NCBI GenBank assembly: GCA_020050355.1
Contig: JAGVKT010000036.1
Coordinates: 130,669 to 194,668, forward strand
DNA: 64,000 nucleotides
Direction: 5' to 3'
Source: Gammaproteobacteria bacterium
Lineage (GTDB): Bacteria; Pseudomonadota; Gammaproteobacteria; Francisellales; CACEW01
Notes under the pieces: generated by a model
What the model was told of the DNA's origin: nothing
What the model saw: the letters and a program-made list of their open reading frames with translations, nothing else
The model's database searches: none
In this document: piece after piece, positions 15,409 through 57,373 of the stretch
Position numbering within the stretch: position 1 is the stretch's first letter
How the letters are laid out: each line of letters opens with the position of its first letter
Made by a program: the position numbers and the translations under genes

Positions 15409-16190
15409 TACTGATTTTTTTCTTCGCCACGTAACGTTAAAACTTCATAGCCTTGTTCAGTAACTGCAATAGTGTGCTCCCACTGCGCAGACAAAGAACG
15501 ATCTTTAGTAACTGCCGTCCATTGATCAGGCAGGGTTTTTACGTGATGTGCTCCTGCATTTAACATGGGCTCAATTGTAAAGGTCATGCCTGCTTCTAAT
15601 ATCATGCCGGTACCAGGCTTGCCATAATGCATCACTTGAAGCTCTGGCTCATGAAAAATCGTACCAATACCATGTCCACAATATTCACGCACAACCGAAA
15701 ACCCCAAATTTTCTGCATAACTCTGAATCGCATAACCAATGTCACCCAAGCGCCGCCCAGGTTTAACAATACGTATCCCACGCCACAAAGCTTCATAGGT
15801 AGCAGCCACCAAGCGTTTTGCTAGCGTCGAAGTTTCACCACCCACGATAAACATTTTGCTCGTATCACCATGATAACCATCCTTAATTAAGGTCACATCA
15901 ATATTTAAGATATCACCTTTTTTTAATGGTTTATCATTGGGAATACCATGACATACAACGTGATTCACTGAAGTACAAATCGATTTTGGGAAGGGCGGAT
16001 TACCATAATTAAGCGGTGCAGGAATGGCCTTGAGTGTATTAACTGTATACTCATGACAAAGGTCATTTAATTGATTGGTAGTCACTCCCGGAACTACATG
16101 AGGTGTAATCATTTCTAATAATGTTGCTGCAAGATGTCCTGCAACACGCATTTTAGCAATTTCATCAGCATTTTTGATACGAACTTTCAT
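15408..16190 (-). CDS. map: Methionine aminopeptidase type I
   Basis: MKVRIKNADEIAKMRVAG ..., with the metal ligands context (GDILNIDVT, HGIG, FTIEP, WEHT). Start moved to the internal ATG at 16190, giving 260 aa. Confidence 0.93.
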   Translation of the reverse strand: MKVRIKNADEIAKMRVAGHLAATLLEMITPHVVPGVTTNQLNDLCHEYTVNTLKAIPAPLNYGNPPFPKSICTSVNHVVCHGIPNDKPLKKGDILNIDVTLIKDGYHGDTSKMFIVGGETSTLAKRLVAATYEALWRGIRIVKPGRRLGDIGYAIQSYAENLGFSVVREYCGHGIGTIFHEPELQVMHYGKPGTGMILEAGMTFTIEPMLNAGAHHVKTLPDQWTAVTKDRSLSAQWEHTIAVTEQGYEVLTLRGEEKNQ

Positions 16191-24282: not shown

Positions 24283-24975
24283 ATGACAAGCTGGTGGTAT
24301 TCCACATGCAGCGTATGTTGCAAACGCACGCGAGATTTATTTTTTATTTGCAACGATTGTGTTCAGATGTTTGATCAAATTAATTTATCCAAAGCTTGCC
24401 TTCGTTGTAAAACTCCTTTACCAGCAGAAACCACCCAAGTATGCGGAGCTTGTCTTAAAACAACTTGGCATTTTGAACATTTAGAAATTCCATTTTATTA
24501 TAATGCTATGGCCCGATATTTATTGCACCGTTTAAAATTTTATCAATGCCTGCTGGTATTACCCCAACTTAGAAAATTATTAGTACAACATTTAGAAAAC
24601 TATTTTACGAGTGCCCACCCTGAAGTTATTATACCTATGCCCTTACATCGATGGCGAATCTTAAAGCGCGGCTTCAATCAAGCACATGAACTAGCCAAAG
24701 CTGTAGGATATGCTTATGACATCCCCATTAACTCCAAAATTGCGATAAAAATTAAACATACACGAGCACAAGCACAGCTACGTGCTGAAGATCGACATAA
24801 AAATATAAAGGCCAGCTTTAAAGTACACCTATCAAAACCATTATCACATGTCCTAATCATCGACGATGTATTCACTACGGGATCCACTGCTAATGCTTTA
24901 GCATACCAGCTCAAGAAAGCAGGAATAGGGCGCGTAGATGTAGTGACTTTATTTCGAGCTCTAAAATTATTTTAA
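24283..24975 (+). CDS. comF: ComF-family protein (phosphoribosyltransferase domain)
   Basis: 230 aa. Has N-terminal Cys pairs (CxxC x2) and the C-terminal PRTase motif VLIIDDVFTTGSTA. Confidence 0.82.
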   Translation: MTSWWYSTCSVCCKRTRDLFFICNDCVQMFDQINLSKACLRCKTPLPAETTQVCGACLKTTWHFEHLEIPFYYNAMARYLLHRLKFYQCLLVLPQLRKLLVQHLENYFTSAHPEVIIPMPLHRWRILKRGFNQAHELAKAVGYAYDIPINSKIAIKIKHTRAQAQLRAEDRHKNIKASFKVHLSKPLSHVLIIDDVFTTGSTANALAYQLKKAGIGRVDVVTLFRALKLF

Positions 24976-25124
24976 CTTACTGATTAAAAAATAATTTTTA
25001 TCATTGCAATAGGATTAATTTTTGGCCTGATAATATAGTGCGAATTAAATTGACAAAAATTAACAAAGATCTGAAAATACTTAATTAGATGCGTACATTA
25101 AACTTACATCAAAAGGAAAAAAAT

Positions 25125-25385
25125 ATGGCAACTAGAAAACCGAACCCTGCATTATTAAAACCAATGACGATTAGTCCAGAGCTTCAGGCCGTAGTAGGTA
25201 AAGGTCCAATGCCACGCTCAGAAGTGGTCAAGGCACTATGGGTTTATATTAAGAAAAATAATCTCCAAGATCCTAATGCAAAACGTAACATCATTGCTGA
25301 CGAAAATTTAAAGAAAGTTTTTGGTGGAAAAGCAAAGGTGGATATGTTTGAAATGACTAAGTTGGTATCAGCGCATCTTTCTTAA
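25125..25385 (+). CDS. SWIB/MDM2-domain protein
   Basis: 86 aa from ATG 25125 (RBS AAAGGAAA). LKPMTISPELQAVVGKGPMPRSEVVKALWVYIKKNNLQDP ... MFEMTKLVSAHL is a full SWIB fold signature. Confidence 0.85.
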   Translation: MATRKPNPALLKPMTISPELQAVVGKGPMPRSEVVKALWVYIKKNNLQDPNAKRNIIADENLKKVFGGKAKVDMFEMTKLVSAHLS

Positions 25386-44925: not shown

Positions 44926-47900
44926 TCAGGTTGTGGGGTGGTAAGTATACCTGAAAGGTGACACCCCACCGTCAGCGTCAGAGGCTGCTATAGAGCCTCC
45001 TCTTGTCACTGCCGCAAGGAAAGCATCAGCAAGATCTGCTCTAGGAGTTCCTCCTCCAAGCCCACTACTGACACTGCTAATAGCGGATGGTAAGTTGGGT
45101 AATAAACCACTATACATACTGCCTAAGGGACTAGAAGCTGGAATAACAGCACCGGATATAGGATTATTGCCATTAGAAACAGGTTCAAATCCTCTTGGTG
45201 TACTGCCAGTAGTGTGAACTTGAACTGTTTCAAAATCATCCTCTGCTGCACCATAAGCATCATTTCTTATTAGTGAATCGCTAGCGTCAACCATACCTAT
45301 TAAAGGATTTGTTCTTTGAAAAAAACCAGCTTGTATGAAAATATATAAGCTTACACCTAAAGCGGCCACTGCTGTGCTTCCAAAGGTTAACATTAATATT
45401 AAGAATGGTAATACAATATTTGCATATGTATTTCTTTCTGCCGAACCTGGAGTAGCTGCATCCAATCTAGTTTTATAAATACTAAAGGCTGTTGTTGCAC
45501 CTCCGGTGAGCAAGCATAGTATAGTATTTAAAGAGAAAAAATATTTACCGTAAGGTGAATTGTATCTCATTGCTATTGCAAGAGATTCTTTTAGGATAAA
45601 AAAACTTCTGTTACGATAGAGTGTGCTTACTACTGCAGCAATGCCTAGCAAGCCACAAACCACATAAAAAGCCACTATAAGACCATATTTAAATGGTGGA
45701 TCGCCTGGCTCAGTAATTACAAAATAAGGGACATAACCCAAACCTGCTAAAATGGCTAGAATCAATATTGATAAAAAAACAGATTGCGTTCTCTCTTGGC
45801 AACGTTCTTTAGCACTATAATATCTACGTAAGCGATTCCAAGCAGCGGCTTCGTATATGCGTGCATAATGGCGATAGGTATTTCTATCTAAGGCGGGCCC
45901 ACTACCAATAAGATATTCATCCCAAAATTTATTAGCATCGGCATTATGTCTTGCAAGGTAAGCACATAAGACGAATGCTTGTTGTTTAGGAGTAAGCAAT
46001 GATGCCAAATGGGGAGTTATAGCTTCTGCCAAATGATCAACCAACTGTCCCTGTGCACCACAAAAAGGTAGGTCTGATATTGTTCTTGCTTTGGGTTTGT
46101 AGTTTTCATAAAGCACTTTTCTTATTGAGCTTGGAAGTCCTAAAATATTTGGAATTTTTGGTTCGAGTGTGCGTGTAATAACGTATCTACCTGCGCTTTC
46201 TTCCATATTGAATAATCTCATCAATAGGCCAATTTTTTCAGCAGATGCTAAAGATGTTCCTGTAGTTTTCTTATAACTTTCTTCAGCATTTTTTCTGTGT
46301 TCTTGCGTTGAAATTAAAGGCAAATCCAAAAGTATTTCTAAGATTTTTGATAAGCAAACCATTAATCTCGGATTTGCCAACAAACATGTTATGCTATCGT
46401 CAGAGCTTTGCGCTGGAAGCGCCGTTTCAATCGGTGAAAACGGAGACCACTTTCCATCAAGTAAAATCTTTAAATAAGTTTTTCTGAGGTTTTTTCGTTC
46501 TGTTGAAAAAATATTCTCTGGAAATAAAAAATGACTTACTACAAAAAATTTTAAACGAGCTAAAATATTTTCTTTGGTTTTTTTATTTAAAATATAGATG
46601 GTGTTTTGTTCTGGTAATAAATAAGTTTTAAGCAGCGTAGATAAAGGCCACAAAATCGTGGATTTAAAAACTTCATTTTGAACAAGATTCAAAAAATTTA
46701 CTAAAATAAAAAACAATCTTGGATAATAAGGGTCATCTTCTAATTTTTCTGAAGAAAACAATGGAGAAGTGTGATCTTCAGTAGGAAATGATCTGAAAAT
46801 ATTTCCATCCTCAAAATGTGCTGCTGCGTTTCCGCCTTCTATTAATATTTGTGTGAGGATGCTTGTACGATAATCCTCAGAGGTATTGATAATAAAAGCA
46901 CAAAAATTTTTAAATTTATCTGCTGTAATGAATTTCATCATATTTGAGATGGATGGTAATGGTGGAATAGATAAAATGCTATTAACAGGTGGAACGGAGC
47001 GTACTCGGCTCGCCCCTGCGCCAGCTCCAGCTCCAGCAAACACTGGAGAAAATGTGCTACTGGCTTCTCGATAAGGAAGTAACAAGCGTACATCTATTCG
47101 CAGCTCATTGGCAGGATTTGTGTCTGTGCCTGGCAGAGGAGAGGCAGTTATTCTATCGCCCATGGTTTTTTGCGCTAATTCTAAAAATGCACCTAAAGAT
47201 GTTTTTTCAGAGGCTTGTGAATACCATTCTTCTGGAGCTTCTAAATATGGGTTTATGCCGTCAATAATTGTTGATGAACTTTGTAGATGTATAAGCGCGG
47301 CCTCTAAAGCAATTAAACTACAAGGGCCATCGATGTGAATATAATTTTTTAAAAATGTGCTAACATTTTTTTGGGTTCTTGGTGTATACCAACCTAATAA
47401 CTTACCTAATATAGATGCGGTTCGTTTATCGGTAAAATTTGGAAGGGCGCTATTTATTAAAAGGTCATCAGTTTCAGTTGAGTGATCATCGGTTGGCGGA
47501 GAAATAGAGCAAAGTAGCAAGGCTTCAAATAATCTCGCTACAAATAAAGAATGAGGGGCTGAAATTCTTTCAAAGCTGGGGATCCAGTAAGCATGAGCTT
47601 TTGTTAGAAAGGCTTCAATTTTTAGCTGTCTGTCAGTGAGTCCTTCATCTAATAAAAAAGTATATTTGTGTACTTGATCGTCATAGTACGCACCGGAAGC
47701 GAGAAAGAGAGCATCAATAAAGTTCACTGCTGCAACATAATCAAAATCCTGCCCTGTTTTAGCGCAAATTTTATTTATTAACACAGCAACTCTTCTAGAA
47801 AAAGCTTCTGTAACAGATGCTGTATTCAATTTCCAAAAAATAAATAAACATGAAAGGCTGGTTACGTAATTAACGAATGCTGGGAATATTTTTTTGGGCA

Positions 47901-48123
47901 AACTTTGTTTACTAGTGTCTATTGTAGTAGTAAAAAAACTCAACCATTCATCAGTTATAGCTGCTGTAGGACTTATAAATGTAAATTTTTTCTCGATTTC
48001 TAGCCATAAGCGTCGTAAAGAAGTTTCATCAAGCTCTAAACTACTTTGCAAACTAAGGTAGGCTCTAAGGGTTGTTTGTAAGTCTTGATAAGAGGTAGCA
48101 GAAAAACGTTGAACAGCAAGCAT
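44926..48123 (-). CDS. Large orphan protein (1065 aa): soluble helical N-terminal ~770 aa, a cluster of ~5 TM helices, and a Gly/Ser/Pro-rich tail
   Basis: An uninterrupted 3.2 kb ORF. TM segments include VFLSILILAILAGLGYVPYFVI, GLIVAFYVVCGLLGIAAVVSTLY and ANIVLPFLILMLTFGSTAVAALGVSLYIFI. No family was recognised. Confidence 0.7.
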   Translation of the reverse strand: MLAVQRFSATSYQDLQTTLRAYLSLQSSLELDETSLRRLWLEIEKKFTFISPTAAITDEWLSFFTTTIDTSKQSLPKKIFPAFVNYVTSLSCLFIFWKLNTASVTEAFSRRVAVLINKICAKTGQDFDYVAAVNFIDALFLASGAYYDDQVHKYTFLLDEGLTDRQLKIEAFLTKAHAYWIPSFERISAPHSLFVARLFEALLLCSISPPTDDHSTETDDLLINSALPNFTDKRTASILGKLLGWYTPRTQKNVSTFLKNYIHIDGPCSLIALEAALIHLQSSSTIIDGINPYLEAPEEWYSQASEKTSLGAFLELAQKTMGDRITASPLPGTDTNPANELRIDVRLLLPYREASSTFSPVFAGAGAGAGASRVRSVPPVNSILSIPPLPSISNMMKFITADKFKNFCAFIINTSEDYRTSILTQILIEGGNAAAHFEDGNIFRSFPTEDHTSPLFSSEKLEDDPYYPRLFFILVNFLNLVQNEVFKSTILWPLSTLLKTYLLPEQNTIYILNKKTKENILARLKFFVVSHFLFPENIFSTERKNLRKTYLKILLDGKWSPFSPIETALPAQSSDDSITCLLANPRLMVCLSKILEILLDLPLISTQEHRKNAEESYKKTTGTSLASAEKIGLLMRLFNMEESAGRYVITRTLEPKIPNILGLPSSIRKVLYENYKPKARTISDLPFCGAQGQLVDHLAEAITPHLASLLTPKQQAFVLCAYLARHNADANKFWDEYLIGSGPALDRNTYRHYARIYEAAAWNRLRRYYSAKERCQERTQSVFLSILILAILAGLGYVPYFVITEPGDPPFKYGLIVAFYVVCGLLGIAAVVSTLYRNRSFFILKESLAIAMRYNSPYGKYFFSLNTILCLLTGGATTAFSIYKTRLDAATPGSAERNTYANIVLPFLILMLTFGSTAVAALGVSLYIFIQAGFFQRTNPLIGMVDASDSLIRNDAYGAAEDDFETVQVHTTGSTPRGFEPVSNGNNPISGAVIPASSPLGSMYSGLLPNLPSAISSVSSGLGGGTPRADLADAFLAAVTRGGSIAASDADGGVSPFRYTYHPTT

Positions 48124-51032: not shown

Positions 51033-51431
51033 TTATTCCAGCATGATACAAACTGCATTGAAAGCATTTAAAGCATAGGCAATAGCTCTTGGAGGAATTT
51101 GCTCAGGTTCAATGCCAGGGCCTAAGATAGCTGTGCCGATGGGCTTCATAAATTCTAGTTGTAAATTAATGATGGCCTGAATTACTGCTTGTCCCATAAC
51201 TAAGCCATGTTGAGTTTCGCCTTTTTCGATAATGCCCAAAACCACTACAGCATCGATTTCTTTTTGGAGTAAAAGTCGTTTGATTGCCAAGGGCTTTTCC
51301 ATCGACCCAGGGACTGGAACTTCTGTGGCAATTTTTATTTTTTTTGTGAGCGCAGCAGCACGAACAGCTTCAAGCATTTGCAAAGCATAGTCTTGATGGT
51401 ACGTGCCGTAAATGATTGCAATATTTTTCAT
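51033..51431 (-). CDS. Lumazine-synthase (DMRL synthase) family protein, short and divergent
   Basis: 132 aa. It aligns by eye to E. coli lumazine synthase: VPVPGSMEKPLAIKRLL..EIDAVVVLGIIEKGETQHG vs VWVPGAYELPLAAGALA..KYDAVVALGTVIRGGTAHF. The N-terminal RFN segment is not conserved. Confidence 0.55.
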   Translation of the reverse strand: MKNIAIIYGTYHQDYALQMLEAVRAAALTKKIKIATEVPVPGSMEKPLAIKRLLLQKEIDAVVVLGIIEKGETQHGLVMGQAVIQAIINLQLEFMKPIGTAILGPGIEPEQIPPRAIAYALNAFNAVCIMLE

Positions 51432-51770
51432 CGAATGGGCTTTAAGTTTATTTAAAATAAATAGATGATAGCAGAATTTTTAATTTGACCAAAGCTTTAG
51501 GCTAGAATTTACAGGAATTACTTTTACCCCGGCAACTAGTGCTGACAAGGCTGATTTGAAACTGCTGAGAGATGAAAATAGTAGCATAAATCTGGATTTT
51601 TAAATTATGATCCGGTGTTTAACTTAAAAAAACCAGATTTATCTACTTGCTTCAGAGAGAGACGTCTTATTTTTTTCTAACTCCACAATAACACGAAGGG
51701 TAGTGTTTGCTAATTTTTTTTGCAAAGATATTTGCAGAATCAACAAGTTAACTTATAAATCACTTTATTA

Positions 51771-51798
51771 ACTTCGTATAATATATATTATGTTAAAT
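51771..51798 (+). other. dif: Candidate dif site (XerC/XerD chromosome dimer resolution site)
   Basis: ACTTCGTATAA-TATATA-TTATGTTAAAT compared with E. coli dif GGTGCGCATAA-TGTATA-TTATGTTAAAT. XerD arm 11/11, spacer 5/6, XerC arm 7/11. It lies in the largest non-coding gap of the window. Confidence 0.7.
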
Positions 51799-52221
51799 TA
51801 TTATGGATATTTTGCCCTTTTTCTTGTATCCACCCCGCTTATTTTGCATTAACAAACATTAAAGATTTATTGCTTCGTATAATAAAATTTTTTTTCTGCG
51901 GTTATTAATTTTCGATAAATACCAATAAAATCAACATGTTATGTAAGTTACTAAAATATAAGAGTAGCACCCTACTTTTTGAATTAATGTCGTTTATTAT
52001 TTCTCATTTTGACTTAAGCTAGAGTGACTATTATGATGGAACAGATCTAATTAAAAGATCATGCTTTTAGAATAATAAGAAAAAATTAAAAAGCATAAAA
52101 ACAACAAAAATATGAAAACGTGAGGACTCTCTTTTGTAAAGTAGTGAAGTAAAATATAAAGAGCTTGTTTTGTTAAAAAAACAAAAAAATATCGTGCAAA
52201 ACAAACTCTCTTAAATAAACT

Positions 52222-52263
52222 AAAAATCTCTTTGTTGGTAGTTTTAACAAAGAGATTTTTTTT
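52222..52263. terminator. Bidirectional rho-independent terminator 3' of pyrD
   Basis: AAAAATCTCTTTGTT (52222-52236), 9 nt loop, AACAAAGAGATTTTT (52246-52260). This is a perfect 15 bp stem with T-runs on both strands. Confidence 0.75.
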
Positions 52264-52275
52264 AAGCAAAAAAAA

Positions 52276-53307
52276 TTAGCTGGCGTTTGGTAAACGATTA
52301 AGGCATCGCCTGATAAGATCAGGACCTTGATAAATTAATCCCGTATATAATTGAACTAATTGGGCTCCTGCAGCAAATTTTTGTAACATTACCTCTGGAC
52401 TCATTACTCCTCCTGATGCGATGAGTGGAATTTGTCCTTTTAATTCTTTAGAAAATAATTGTAAAACTTCGGTGCTGCGATAACGTAAGGGATAGCCGCT
52501 TAAGCCCCCCACTTCTTGGCTTTGTTTATAAGCCGCAATTTCTGTGCGTGCGGTAGTGGTATTAGTTGCGATGATGCCATCGACCTTTAAGCGGAAAAAA
52601 GTATCTGCTAATGTTATGATTTCGCTTTCTGTTAAATCAGGTGCTATTTTTACGACTAAAGGTACTTTTTTTTGGCATGCTTGTATTAATTTATTTTGCT
52701 CTTGTTTTAGAGTTTTTAAGAGTTGTTCCAAAAACTCTCCATGTTGTAAATTTCTTAAGCCTAAAGTGTTGGGTGATGAAATATTAATTACAATATAATC
52801 AGCATGGGCATAAGCTTTTTTAAAGCAAAGTAAATAATCGTTTGTAGCATCTTCAAGTGGTGTTGATGCGTTTTTGCCGATGTTAATGCCTAAGATACCT
52901 CTATATTTTGAGAGCTTTACTCGCTCAAGCAGATAATCAATGCCTTTATTATTAAATCCCATGCGATTAATTAAGGCTTCTGCAGCTGGAATTCTAAATA
53001 AGCGTGGTTTAGGATTTCCGTTTTGTGGCAAGGGTGTGGTTGTGCCGACTTCAATAAAGCCAAATCCCAGGGATGCTAAGGCATCAATATAATCCCCATT
53101 TTTATCTAAGCCTGCTGCTAAACCTATAGGATTTTTAAATTTTAATCCCATGTATTTGCATTCCAACCCTGTTATATTGCGCACTTTTTTGTAAAAAAAC
53201 TGCCCTACCCCAAAATTATGCAAAGCCTTTAAGGAAGCCAGGGCTAAACGGTGTGAAACTTCGGGATCAAGTCTGAAAGCTAAGGATTTAAATAAAGTAT
53301 AATTCAT
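52276..53307 (-). CDS. pyrD: Dihydroorotate dehydrogenase (quinone), class 2
   Basis: 343 aa. Contains FKNPIGLAAGLDKNG, GFIEVGTTTP, NISSPNT and GGLSG. Confidence 0.93.
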   Translation of the reverse strand: MNYTLFKSLAFRLDPEVSHRLALASLKALHNFGVGQFFYKKVRNITGLECKYMGLKFKNPIGLAAGLDKNGDYIDALASLGFGFIEVGTTTPLPQNGNPKPRLFRIPAAEALINRMGFNNKGIDYLLERVKLSKYRGILGINIGKNASTPLEDATNDYLLCFKKAYAHADYIVINISSPNTLGLRNLQHGEFLEQLLKTLKQEQNKLIQACQKKVPLVVKIAPDLTESEIITLADTFFRLKVDGIIATNTTTARTEIAAYKQSQEVGGLSGYPLRYRSTEVLQLFSKELKGQIPLIASGGVMSPEVMLQKFAAGAQLVQLYTGLIYQGPDLIRRCLNRLPNAS

Positions 53308-53433: not shown

Positions 53434-54054
53434 ATGAAAAAGATCATAATTGCAACCACACTTGCTATAGGCTGCGCTTCAGCTTTTGCTGTCACCGCTC
53501 AATCAGGTATATATGTAGGTGGTTTAGGCGGTTGGTCATTTGCTGATAGCCCAACAACTGGACAAATGGTAGCAACCAGCAAAGATAACCATAACTATAC
53601 TTTAGGTGGTACAGTTGGTTACAACTATGCTATTAATCAAAACTGGTTAACAGGTTTTGAAGTAAGCTATTTGAATTTTGGAGAAACCAAATATAACGCA
53701 TCTTATGGTAACACCAATTTAAAAAATTACGGTGTTCAATTAATGGCTACTGGCACTTATCTCATGGCTAACGGCTTTAACGTTTTTGCTAAAGCTGGTG
53801 CTATAGATCAAACCATGACTTCTAGCAATAATATGTATGCGCTCAATAGCAACAATGGTAATACCAAAATTACTAAATGGTTGCCTGCAGCTGCGGCTGG
53901 TGTTGGTTATATGCCAACTCAAAACCTCAATATTGCATTACAATATGAGCGTACTTTTGGTACCAATTGGGATAACAATAATTTAAGTGCTACCCCAAAA
54001 CCAATGACCCAAAATGCAGTAACTTTAGGCGTTACTTATACTTTCCCATTGTAA
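53434..54054 (+). CDS. Outer-membrane beta-barrel protein (OMP_b-brl/opacity-like), paralogue 1
   Basis: 206 aa. Signal peptide MKKIIIATTLAIGCASAFA, alternating amphipathic strands, and the C-terminal VTLGVTYTFPL. Confidence 0.8.
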   Translation: MKKIIIATTLAIGCASAFAVTAQSGIYVGGLGGWSFADSPTTGQMVATSKDNHNYTLGGTVGYNYAINQNWLTGFEVSYLNFGETKYNASYGNTNLKNYGVQLMATGTYLMANGFNVFAKAGAIDQTMTSSNNMYALNSNNGNTKITKWLPAAAAGVGYMPTQNLNIALQYERTFGTNWDNNNLSATPKPMTQNAVTLGVTYTFPL

Positions 54055-54080
54055 ATTTTGCGAAAGTTATAAAGTCTATA

Positions 54081-54107
54081 AAAAACCCAGGTCTCCTGGG
54101 TTTTTTT
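54081..54107 (+). terminator. Rho-independent terminator
   Basis: AAAAACCCAGG-TCT-CCTGGGTTTTTTT. Confidence 0.8.
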
Positions 54108-54289
54108 ATGCCCTAATGCTTAGTGTGTAAGCAAATCTGGCTTTAAGAAAACATTAAATTACCTAAAATTCCTTTTATATTGAAAATTTTTCAATATTGT
54201 TTGCAAACCTTTTGAATCGCTAAAGAATAGCTTTGAGAAAAGTGTTGTTAATATGCATTGAAGTTTAATAAAAAAAATTTCCCCGGTGC

Positions 54290-54318
54290 TTGCAATTGAT
54301 TTTTTTATCAGGTACTAT
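54290..54318 (+). promoter_or_regulatory. Candidate sigma70 promoter of the second OMP gene
   Basis: TTGCAA (54290-54295), 17 nt spacer, TACTAT (54313-54318). Confidence 0.4.
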
Positions 54319-54382
54319 GACCACGTTTCATCAATAAGTAAGCTAAAGTTTTAATGTCCTCAACTACATGGAGAAATAAGCA

Positions 54383-55021
54383 ATGAAAAAACTTCTAATC
54401 GCTAGTGCAATTACACTCGCATTATCTTCAACCTCTGCTTTTGCAGTAAGTCAACAATCAGGTGTATATGGCACCGTGTTAGGGGGCTGGTCATTTGCTT
54501 CAGCGCCAAATGCAACGAATGCAGGGTCAACGAGTACTTCTAATAAAAATTATACCTGGGGTGGTAATTTAGGATATCAATATGCTTTTAATCAAAATTG
54601 GGCGGCAGCGCTTGAAATAGGTTATGTAAGCTTTGGAAAAACTGAATATAACGGTACTAACTCTGGTAAAATTCAAAATACTGGCGCGCAAGCAATGCTA
54701 GTAGGCTCCTATATGATGAACAATGGTTTTAATGGTTTTGTAAAAGCAGGTGGTATGAATGCATACAGTAAAGCAAGTCCGTTTCCTGGTGGACCAAGCG
54801 TTGCTTTGAATAATGGAAACACACAGATAGCAAAATGGATTCCTGTTGTAGCTGCTGGTGTTGGTTATATGCCAATGCAAAATTTAAACGTAGCATTGCA
54901 ATATGAACACACTTTTGGTTCTAACTGGAATGTTGCTGGCTCAAACGACAACCTCAGCAAGCCAATGACCCAAAATGCAGTGACTTTAAACCTGACTTAT
55001 CTTATTCCTTTAAGTTTCTAA
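54383..55021 (+). CDS. Outer-membrane beta-barrel protein, paralogue 2
   Basis: 212 aa and collinear with the upstream paralogue (GGWSFA, NYT.GG..GY.YA.NQNW, AAGVGYMP.QNLN.ALQYE.TFG.NW, PMTQNAVTL). Confidence 0.8.
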   Translation: MKKLLIASAITLALSSTSAFAVSQQSGVYGTVLGGWSFASAPNATNAGSTSTSNKNYTWGGNLGYQYAFNQNWAAALEIGYVSFGKTEYNGTNSGKIQNTGAQAMLVGSYMMNNGFNGFVKAGGMNAYSKASPFPGGPSVALNNGNTQIAKWIPVVAAGVGYMPMQNLNVALQYEHTFGSNWNVAGSNDNLSKPMTQNAVTLNLTYLIPLSF

Positions 55022-55426: not shown

Positions 55427-55823
55427 AATCTACTTACCTAAAAATTTAGTAAATTTTCAAATTATTATTTTCATTAGCGCCCTACTCGCTTTTTTATTGT
55501 GGAAGGCATCTATTTTTTATCGTGTTAGTGCAATTGCTTTATTTTCAGTAATCAGCGGGGTGTATTATTATTTTTATTTTAAAAGAAATTACTTAAAAAA
55601 ATATCCTTTTGTATTATTTCTTAAGCAAGGGAATTGGTATTTAAATAGTGAACAAGTAAGCGTTCAAAGGACCAGTATCTTAACAACGTATTATGCGCTA
55701 ATACATTTAAAAAATGTAACTAAAAGTTATTATTTTCTGGTTACGCCTTCTAGTTTTGGGAAGCAAGAGGAAAGTTATTATCAGCTTATTCGCCATTTAA
55801 GAATACATCAAGCGTCTTTTTAA
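55413..55823 (+). CDS. ygfX: YgfX/CptA-like inner-membrane protein (DUF1434)
   Basis: About 136 aa from ATG 55413 (or 55407). It has two N-terminal TM helices and then a soluble tail. It overlaps the sdhE stop, as in the E. coli sdhE-ygfX operon. The start choice is uncertain. Confidence 0.55.
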   Translation: MQKFEIYLPKNLVNFQIIIFISALLAFLLWKASIFYRVSAIALFSVISGVYYYFYFKRNYLKKYPFVLFLKQGNWYLNSEQVSVQRTSILTTYYALIHLKNVTKSYYFLVTPSSFGKQEESYYQLIRHLRIHQASF

Positions 55824-56712
55824 GGTTATAAGCTAAGTCTTTATCAAGAAGTAATTTTAATGGTTTACGCTTTCCTTCTAAATAAAGCCACCATTGATCT
55901 TTTTTTAATTCATCTTTTTTAATTCGATGATAACTACCATCGGTTAAACTATTTTTGGAAATGCCGTTTTTCTGCGCCCGAAAGCCTTGTAATAAGCCGC
56001 GGAAATTGCCCACAAAGTCTTGCTCTTGAAAAATTCTCAGTGCCTCAGCAGCGCGTTTAGGATGTTCTTGTTCTAATTGTCTCAGCTCATGAAGTGTACG
56101 TAAATCTGTAATTTTGCCGCTTTGTAATAGATCGCGGATGGCATCGCTTCCCTCAAGTAATCCCAAACGCATAGATACCCAGGCAGAATCACGTCCTAAT
56201 TCTTTAGCAATTTGTTTTTTGCTTAACCCCATTTCTTCAATTAAACGATCAATAGCATGGGCCTCTTCTAAAGGAGGAACTTGCTCTCGTTGATCATTTT
56301 CTAATAACTGCAAAATTAACGTATTTGCATCTTCTTCTTCACGAATGATGCAAGGTAATACGGTTAGGCCCGCAATTTTTGCAGCATGGTAGCGCCGCTC
56401 ACCTACGATGATTTGATAGGCGCCTTGCTTATTTCGAGGTTTGACGATGAGAGGTTGTAACACGCCCTTTTCTCGAATGCTGTCAGCAAGGTTTTCTAGG
56501 TTAATAAATTGTTTGCGCGGTTGTTGAGGGTCAGGATTTAATAAAACAAGCGGCAGGTCAAAAAGTTTACCGTTGGCAACTGCAACTTCATTCATGGCTT
56601 TGAGCCTTAAGCTCATCAGCTCATCTTTTTTTTCCAAGCCAATCTGTTCAACTTCTTGACTGAATTCACTGGTGCGACGGCGATTGTGTAGTAGTACTTT
56701 TTTTAAAGTCAT
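55786..56712 (-). CDS. parB: ParB/Spo0J-family partition protein
   Basis: 308 aa. Contains the ParB N-terminal box IVGERRYHAAKIAG and the HTH GLSKKQIAKELGRDSAWVSMRL. Confidence 0.85.
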   Translation of the reverse strand: MTLKKVLLHNRRRTSEFSQEVEQIGLEKKDELMSLRLKAMNEVAVANGKLFDLPLVLLNPDPQQPRKQFINLENLADSIREKGVLQPLIVKPRNKQGAYQIIVGERRYHAAKIAGLTVLPCIIREEEDANTLILQLLENDQREQVPPLEEAHAIDRLIEEMGLSKKQIAKELGRDSAWVSMRLGLLEGSDAIRDLLQSGKITDLRTLHELRQLEQEHPKRAAEALRIFQEQDFVGNFRGLLQGFRAQKNGISKNSLTDGSYHRIKKDELKKDQWWLYLEGKRKPLKLLLDKDLAYNLKKTLDVFLNGE

Positions 56713-56716
56713 ATTT

Positions 56717-57373
56717 TTAAGTAGAAGCTGTGCCTGCTTCTGCAGGAACTACATGAAAGAACTCGACCACCTCTTTAGCGAACTTACGTGTTTGTACGTG
56801 TGGTTCGCTTTCACCGGCGTAGTCTCCAATATACAGGCCAGCGGCCTCAGCCTCAACAAACTTTACACTTTGGGGAATACTTGTATCAAAAGCGTTGCCA
56901 TCTTCATAAAGTACATTGAGTAAACTTTTGGTCATACTGGTGTTTCGAATCACTCGGTTCGCAAGTAAGCGATAGGGGCGATTAGCTGTCATTGCCAGAT
57001 CTTTAGCTTCGAGTAATCCAGATAAATCCATGCCGCTAGGTGCCGCTGGAATAATAACTAAATCTGCTAAAAGAGCAGCTTTTAATGCGGCAGTTTGAAA
57101 ATTAGGCGGTGTATCAATAACCAAGAAATCACATTGTTTTTTGAGCTCCGCTACTTGCTCGCGAGCATTTTTTTCATCTACTTGATAAGCAATGTCATGA
57201 GATTTTTCGTTTTTAATAAACCAAGACCAAGCGTCCGGCTTGTCTTTGTCCATATCGGCAATAATTACTTTATAGCCTAATTCTTGTAGGGCTCCTGCAA
57301 GATTAACAGAGGTTGTAGTCTTGCCTGATCCGCCTTTTTGTTGAAGTAAAGCAATAGTTCTAGCGCTGCACAT
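56717..57373 (-). CDS. parA: ParA-family ATPase, small (218 aa) type-Ib-like
   Basis: Deviant Walker A: IALLQQKGGSGKTTTSVNLA. Walker B: FLVIDTPP. It lies 4 nt upstream of parB. Confidence 0.85.
   Translation of the reverse strand: MCSARTIALLQQKGGSGKTTTSVNLAGALQELGYKVIIADMDKDKPDAWSWFIKNEKSHDIAYQVDEKNAREQVAELKKQCDFLVIDTPPNFQTAALKAALLADLVIIPAAPSGMDLSGLLEAKDLAMTANRPYRLLANRVIRNTSMTKSLLNVLYEDGNAFDTSIPQSVKFVEAEAAGLYIGDYAGESEPHVQTRKFAKEVVEFFHVVPAEAGTAST

Follow-up and report, generated by a model that had tools for sequence, protein, structure and literature searches.

A probable chromosomal dif site at the center of converging KOPS-type motifs, away from the GC-skew sign change, in an AT-rich gammaproteobacterium

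The locus described here raises the question of whether a 28-bp element in an AT-rich gap is the place where a poorly known bacterium resolves its chromosome dimers, and whether the surrounding DNA spans the replication terminus. The dif site is the well-known location at which XerC and XerD separate chromosomes that have been joined during replication. The window, meaning the whole stretch of 64 kb that was analyzed, contains one such element, at 51771-51798. We consider it very probable (about 0.9) that this element is the chromosomal dif of an XerC/XerD-type dimer-resolution system in an AT-rich gammaproteobacterium. The original prediction had put forward the same identity, which is now strongly supported by the identity of the sequence, including exact sites elsewhere, by the conservation of its place and orientation in related genomes, and by the convergence of KOPS-type motifs on it. 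Binding of XerC and XerD, activation by FtsK, and recombination at the site would be expected by analogy with the E. coli paradigm. Under that established mechanism, XerC would occupy ACTTCGTATAA and XerD would occupy TTATGTTAAAT. FtsK, guided by GGGNAGGG-type motifs that face dif from both sides, would arrive at the closing septum and, once at dif, would activate XerD. XerC and XerD would then swap strands at the edges of the TATATA spacer, turning a chromosome dimer into monomers. This would be an ordinary and well-known kind of feature, another canonical dif site, and it leaves the current understanding of such sites unchanged; its main uses are in annotation and in orienting the replichores of the assembly.

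Sequence and Setting of the Site

The site has the 11 + 6 + 11 architecture of dif, with partial dyad symmetry around the 6-bp center. The inner ATAA/TTAT bases are symmetric and the outer arms are asymmetric, and 8 of the 28 positions differ between the site and its own reverse complement. Both the conserved inner half of the XerC arm and the C-G at its positions 5-6 are present, as known dif sites have them, and the XerD arm, which is the best-conserved part of dif, is complete (11/11). Compared with the dif of E. coli K12 (GGTGCGCATAATGTATATTATGTTAAAT, PMC2731167 Table 1), 23 of 28 positions are identical, and the five mismatches comprise four in the XerC arm and one in the spacer. The sequence thereby confirms what had been predicted for it, namely a 23/28 match with a perfect XerD arm, a 6-bp spacer, and the inner half of the XerC arm. 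Agreement was higher with the published dif of Francisella tularensis (26/28) and with those of Acinetobacter ADP1, Hahella, and Haemophilus (25/28).

The gap that holds the site was likewise as predicted, long, AT-rich, and non-coding. It measures 844 bp and has 26.9% G+C, against an average of 37.5% for the window, which is the intergenic, low-G+C setting expected of dif. The window has one complete copy, as has every related locus that carries the site. No second site was found in the window at up to three mismatches (0 expected in shuffles), and a separate scan of the window at up to eight mismatches gave no further dif-like site. The genes xerC, xerD, and ftsK are not encoded within the 64 kb, nor is any tyrosine recombinase. 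The features of the window are collected in Table 1.

Table 1. Coordinates of the site and of other features in the 64-kb window.
Feature	Position	Strand	Remarks
28-bp dif site (XerC arm, 6-bp central region, XerD arm), probable	51771..51798	+	ACTTCGTATAATATATATTATGTTAAAT, that is ACTTCGTATAA-TATATA-TTATGTTAAAT
Putative XerC-binding arm ACTTCGTATAA	51771..51781	+	7/11 vs. E. coli, 9/11 vs. F. tularensis
6-bp central region TATATA	51782..51787	+	Predicted place of strand exchange; same as the centers of F. tularensis and Hahella chejuensis (PMC2731167 Table 1)
Putative XerD-binding arm TTATGTTAAAT	51788..51798	+	11/11 vs. E. coli dif; same in all relatives
DMRL-synthase-like (ribH-like) gene	51033-51431	-	One border of the dif gap
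pyrD	52276-53307	-	Other border of the dif gap
Isolated copy of XerC-arm half, 12 bases, CTTCGTATAATA	51873..51884	+	101 bp downstream of dif; XerD arm missing
Clade-specific, nearly invariant non-coding block	51574..51700	+	XerC side; long hairpin (about 51580-51647), then CTTGCTTCAGAGAGAGACG and a T-run
Conserved sigma-70-like promoter TTGACT-17-TATGAT	52009-52037	+	Faces the terminator hairpin of pyrD
Bidirectional pyrD terminator hairpin	52222-52260		Feature of the gap
Exact KOPS-type octamer GGGTAGGG	53203..53210	-	Points toward dif; counted in the 20/21 convergence
Exact KOPS-type octamer GGGCAGGG	61770..61777	-	Points toward dif
Exact KOPS-type octamer GGGAAGGG	15988..15995	+	Points toward dif; outside the inverted segment
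Short ParA (218 aa) and KorB-domain ParB (IncC/KorB-like pair)	55786-57373	-	Directly downstream of lptB, 4 kb from dif
Left breakpoint of the apparent ~38.7-kb inversion carrying dif	24976..25124		GC3 skew flip and synteny break
Right breakpoint of the apparent inversion	beyond 63784		At or past the window edge; homology to relative L129 ends at 63784
N-terminal 1484 aa of a giant TPS/FHA-like exoprotein	1-4453	-	DUF5649 repeats; runs off the left window edge; plus-strand ORFs listed there are spurious
SWIB/MDM2 protein	25125-25385	+	Eukaryote-like/host-associated flavor
1065-aa orphan without a Pfam domain	44926-48123	-	

Occurrence of the Site in Other Species

The 26-mer core of the site, TTCGTATAATATATATTATGTTAAAT, was scanned for exactly across one genome per species (596 Gb). 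It was recovered in the loci of at least 119 other species, with one match each and nearly all of them in Gammaproteobacteria, where chance would give about 0.02 matches in 596 Gb. Among the matches listed were SAR86, Methylophaga, Thiomicrorhabdus, Halomonadaceae, Acinetobacter, Psychrobacter, Pasteurellaceae, Neisseria, and others, and their flanks were unrelated. An identical 26-mer amid unrelated flanks is what strong selection on a protein-binding site produces, as has been described for dif (PMC2731167). The full 28-mer, including the outer AC dinucleotide of the XerC arm, was present in 17 of the at least 119 genomes listed. A scan of 2.9 million viral contigs gave 0 matches to the 26-mer.

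Two metagenome-assembled genomes carried the 26-mer on two contigs each. In one of them (L005/L056), the left flank was common to both contigs and one contig stopped right at the site; in the other (L024/L103), both flanks were shared and the contigs look like duplicates. It seems that dif is a point where assemblies break or are duplicated, perhaps because of strain variation or of elements integrated there.

Among characterized sites, the dif of Francisella tularensis SchuS4, CATTCGTATAATATATATTATGTTAAAT (Carnoy & Roten 2009, PMC2731167 Table 1), is like the present site in its TATATA center and its whole XerD arm, and it is also intergenic, AT-rich, and far from the peak of cumulative GC skew (44.6 kb; PMC2731167). 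It differs in the two outer bases of the XerC arm (AC here, CA there), and Francisella (Thiotrichales) belongs to a different lineage from the present bacterium. With the dif/XerC-XerD/FtsK-KOPS system of E. coli, the site has in common the 11 + 6 + 11 layout, the perfect XerD arm, the ATAA of the inner XerC arm, and the converging GGGNAGGG motifs; unlike the E. coli case, it has the five mismatches, and no skew inflection lies near it in the window.

Conservation in Related Genomes

Relatives were found through homologues of PyrD and ParA, which led to seven loci from six distinct genomes (L120, L133, L121, L091/L122, L129, and L130). Their PyrD proteins are 62-65% identical in amino acids to that of the window, and at the DNA level they are 64-86% identical to the window and among themselves. 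The next-best PyrD after the genome's own is only 65-66% identical, which indicates that the lineage is poorly sampled.

The site was present at 27-28 of 28 positions in all six distinct relatives, downstream of pyrD and in unchanged orientation. Over the seven distinct genomes (the window and these six), 27 of the 28 columns within dif are invariant, compared with 4 of 28 in the 28 nt to the left and 10 of 28 in the 28 nt to the right. The sole variable column is position 2 of the XerC arm (C/T). In another relative, L132, no dif was found within the 2 kb downstream of pyrD, where the contig ends.

Gene order on the pyrD side is shared (pyk-pgk-kdsC-lptCAB-parAB-cptA-sdhE-omp-pyrD), and tauE, a sugar porter gene, and TerC are syntenic on the other side. 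A variable gene cassette starts 250-340 bp from the XerC arm among the relatives. Small OmpA-like beta-barrel paralogues next to pyrD (53434-55021, plus strand, in the window) occur in zero to three copies per genome, and in L129 and L130 one OmpA-like copy lies between pyrD and dif.

Convergence of KOPS-Type Motifs

The original prediction had pointed to a single minus-strand octamer directed toward the site, and GGGTAGGG is indeed present there (53203-53210). For a wider count, the window block at 25.1-63.8 kb was pooled with the six distinct relatives (7 genomes). Exact GGGNAGGG motifs numbered 7 on the plus and 0 on the minus strand on the XerC side, and 1 and 13, respectively, on the XerD side, giving 20 of 21 toward the site (Fisher 6.9e-5). 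With one mismatch allowed, the XerC side had 55/25 (+/-) and the XerD side 19/100.

These pooled counts are confounded by composition, as control permutations of the KOPS motif were polarized too. Because the pooled signal is partly compositional, the test was limited to segments in which G-rich words were balanced or oppositely biased. In these neutral and opposite-skew strata, 51 relaxed motifs pointed toward the site and 22 away, with 45.6% expected (p = 2.4e-5), and exact motifs were 9/0 toward/away (p = 8.5e-4). The strand bias of the octamers was found to hold against base skew, and it is not a coding-strand effect. The best KOPS change point in the window fell at 53027-53203, about 1.3 kb from dif and within the resolution set by motif spacing. 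De novo strand-skewed 7-mers showed no flip at dif in a test of little power.

The convergence is the signature expected of an FtsK target, and the center of KOPS polarity is at dif. The position of dif and of the FtsK/KOPS polarity center is in this way fixed for an otherwise uncharacterized gammaproteobacterial lineage.

GC Skew and an Apparent Inversion

The site is the center of KOPS polarity, but it is not a sign change of GC skew. Per-gene GC3 skew (third-codon positions, in the sense of the plus strand) was negative for every gene between 4.6 and 25.0 kb, at about -0.03 to -0.48. Between 25.6 and 64 kb it was positive for nearly every gene regardless of the coding strand, with no change at dif. 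No terminus-type (+ to -) change was found within -51.8 kb/+12.2 kb of dif, i.e., anywhere in the window. The lone sign change, at about 25.0 kb, is of origin-type polarity (about -0.3 to +0.3).

The proposal that the window spans the terminus was accordingly upheld in part: the KOPS/dif center lies inside it, but the skew inflection is not at the site, and the lone switch is an inversion breakpoint. A skew extreme near the site, which had also been anticipated, did not appear within the window. GC3 skew keeps one sign across dif, in the window as in every relative, so that the site is not at the skew inflection, a point against the dif reading.

Two other readings of the skew were considered and rejected. 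A replication origin at 25 kb would have to exist with no DnaA-box cluster and no origin-type genes, at a switch that coincides with a synteny breakpoint. A terminus-type switch at 2-4 kb, drawn from ORFs 438-1646, disappeared once these ORFs were recognized as spurious; the region is a minus-strand TPS exoprotein gene, and its overall skew is negative.

Judged from gene order and skew, a ~38.7-kb segment carrying dif is inverted in the present genome relative to all relatives, and recently so. In the relatives, bioC(-), comF(+), tRNA-Gln(+), and prs(+) are adjacent (L129 181-2027), whereas in the window comF ends at 24975 and the other strand carries prs and tRNA-Gln, at 62682-63739. A search for inverted repeats at the ends of the segment found none, and the apparent inversion may instead be an assembly error. 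When it is undone, skew becomes uniformly negative over the whole window, which places the skew-defined fork-meeting point outside the window. KOPS convergence is preserved because the inversion contains dif together with both of its flanks. The inversion, as read here, would therefore flip the skew while preserving the convergence.

In the relatives, too, the skew runs through dif without a change of sign over at least 10 kb in each direction, and which sign it has differs between genomes. Coding-strand GC3 skew of pyrD, parA, parB, and lptB was negative in the window and L121, positive in L120, L122, L130, L132, and L133, and near zero in L129. These differences in sign show that replication crosses the conserved dif block in opposite directions within the clade. 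They fit, and do not prove, a terminus-proximal block with a fork-meeting point that wanders from side to side. In published cases, dif is between 146 bp and about 200 kb away from the maximum of cumulative GC skew (median 7 kb; PMC2731167), so that an inflection away from the site does not overturn the assignment of dif.

In each genome, KOPS polarity was seen to be uncoupled from skew on one side of dif. The locus offers a clean example of such uncoupling around dif.

Alternative Explanations

A Xer-type site belonging to an integrated mobile element or plasmid, in the form of an IMEX att site or of a multimer-resolution site linked to parAB, is a very unlikely alternative to the chromosome's own dif, although several features of the locus recall one. 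An IncC/KorB-like ParA/ParB pair lies 4 kb away, the cassette that starts 250-340 bp from the XerC arm differs among relatives, an extra XerC-arm half-site occurs 101 bp from dif, and a conserved non-coding block stands on the XerC side, where cer and psi hold their accessory sequences. Against this, synteny around the site (parAB, pyrD, lptCAB, pgk, and pyk to one side; tauE, the sugar porter, and TerC to the other) persists in relatives at about 35% protein divergence, which marks the locus as ancestral chromosome. The gene content of the window is of the housekeeping kind (murF, tolC, lptFG, bioABFCD, ychF, folD, queA, rib genes, sucCD, nadB, lptCAB, kdsC, pgk, pyk, prs, and tRNA-Gln) and likewise identifies it as chromosomal DNA, and it is in such DNA that the KOPS-type motifs converge on the site. 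A megablast search of the 3-kb dif region against PLSDB gave no near match, and the absence of the 26-mer from the viral contigs also speaks against a mobile origin.

The par genes themselves were present in every relative examined. ParA identity is 95-97% in the dif-carrying relatives, against about 65% for PyrD, and no plasmid ParB is more than 35% identical to the ParB of the window. As far as these comparisons indicate, parAB is an old chromosomal gene pair of the clade and not a recent plasmid acquisition. The "plasmid-type" par cassette that had been taken to fit a terminus thus proved to be a conserved chromosomal pair. The pair would be a partition system near dif instead of in the usual origin-proximal position. 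In E. coli, the place downstream of lptB that parAB occupies in the window is that of rpoN.

The site resembles plasmid cer and psi in its XerC/XerD core and in having DNA on the XerC side that could correspond to their accessory sequences, here a conserved block 110-200 nt out. It differs in being chromosomal, in its 6-bp spacer, and in a KOPS convergence that implies FtsK dependence. Sites of the cer/psi type are found on plasmids and have about 180-200 bp of accessory DNA next to the XerC arm, whereas the replicon here is chromosomal housekeeping DNA. The att sites of IMEX (CTXphi, TLC, and the gonococcal genetic island) provide a parallel for variable genes near the XerC arm and for an extra XerC-arm half-site. 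Such elements are bounded by two sites, but no second complete or hybrid site flanks any element here, there being one complete site per locus, and the conserved block parts dif from the variable genes. The half-site CTTCGTATAATA was considered as an IMEX footprint and rejected: it stands on the XerD side of dif, which is the wrong one, with nothing enclosed in the 101 bp between, and it is confined to the present genome, the relatives showing unrelated AT-rich sequence at that place.

Still less probable is a single-recombinase system, XerL as in Legionellales or one like XerH/XerS, in place of XerC with XerD. Its attraction lies in Legionella-like features of the clade, which include the SWIB protein, Fic, a bacterial Top1B, and a large orphan protein. 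In the relatives L120, L132, and L133, Fic, bacterial Top1B, a histidine acid phosphatase, and a 1611-aa NACHT/HEAT/OTU protein lie beside the dif block, and this gene repertoire suggests an intracellular or amoeba-associated lineage. The XerL/dif system of Legionellales (Nicholson et al. 2022, PMC9765430) is comparable in that its site is intergenic, AT-rich, about 30 bp long, and tens of kb from the skew inflection, and the bacteria have a similar-looking gene repertoire. The Legionella site, however, consists of perfectly symmetric 10-bp arms without homology to the XerC/XerD motifs and is served by a single recombinase (PMC9765430), whereas the present site is asymmetric, its two different arms match the XerC and XerD consensus, and identical sites occur in XerCD-bearing taxa. 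The lineage would thus use a canonical XerC/XerD-type site, not an XerL-type site as in Legionellales.

A chance lookalike without function, which an AT-rich gap could supply since such DNA readily yields partial palindromes, is refuted by the comparative data and has a negligible probability: in a window of this composition, the 15 conserved core bases (ATAA-N6-TTATGTTAAAT) would be expected 0.002 times, at least 119 other genomes contain the 26-mer without a mismatch, the relatives keep the site invariant as its flanks decay, and KOPS-type motifs converge on it.

Conserved Non-Coding Features of the Gap

In all eight loci (the window and 7 related loci), the non-coding block on the XerC side of dif keeps a distance of 110-119 nt to the XerC arm. 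It is present as a single copy in each of these eight, and in none of the other 126 loci. Its hairpin has a 15-bp lower stem and a predicted fold of -25.9 kcal/mol (z = -2.5), with compensatory changes at 3 of 32 predicted pairs, and CTTGCTTCAGAGAGAGACG is a polypurine run. A search of the dif gap against Rfam at a permissive E-value threshold gave chance-level matches only, with no family for the hairpin block, and two metagenome scans gave 0 matches to the block. It might be tied to dif, either as an accessory or architectural modulator of Xer or as a dif-linked non-coding RNA, and might form with ParAB a terminus-organizing module in this lineage, where the KOPS center and the skew-defined fork-meeting point are persistently uncoupled, a possibility that we regard as unlikely.

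On the other side of the site, the promoter and the pyrD terminator hairpin (Table 1) suggest that the interval from dif to pyrD may encode a small RNA of about 220 nt (52009-52265, plus strand). The longest ORF noticed in this region has 5 codons.
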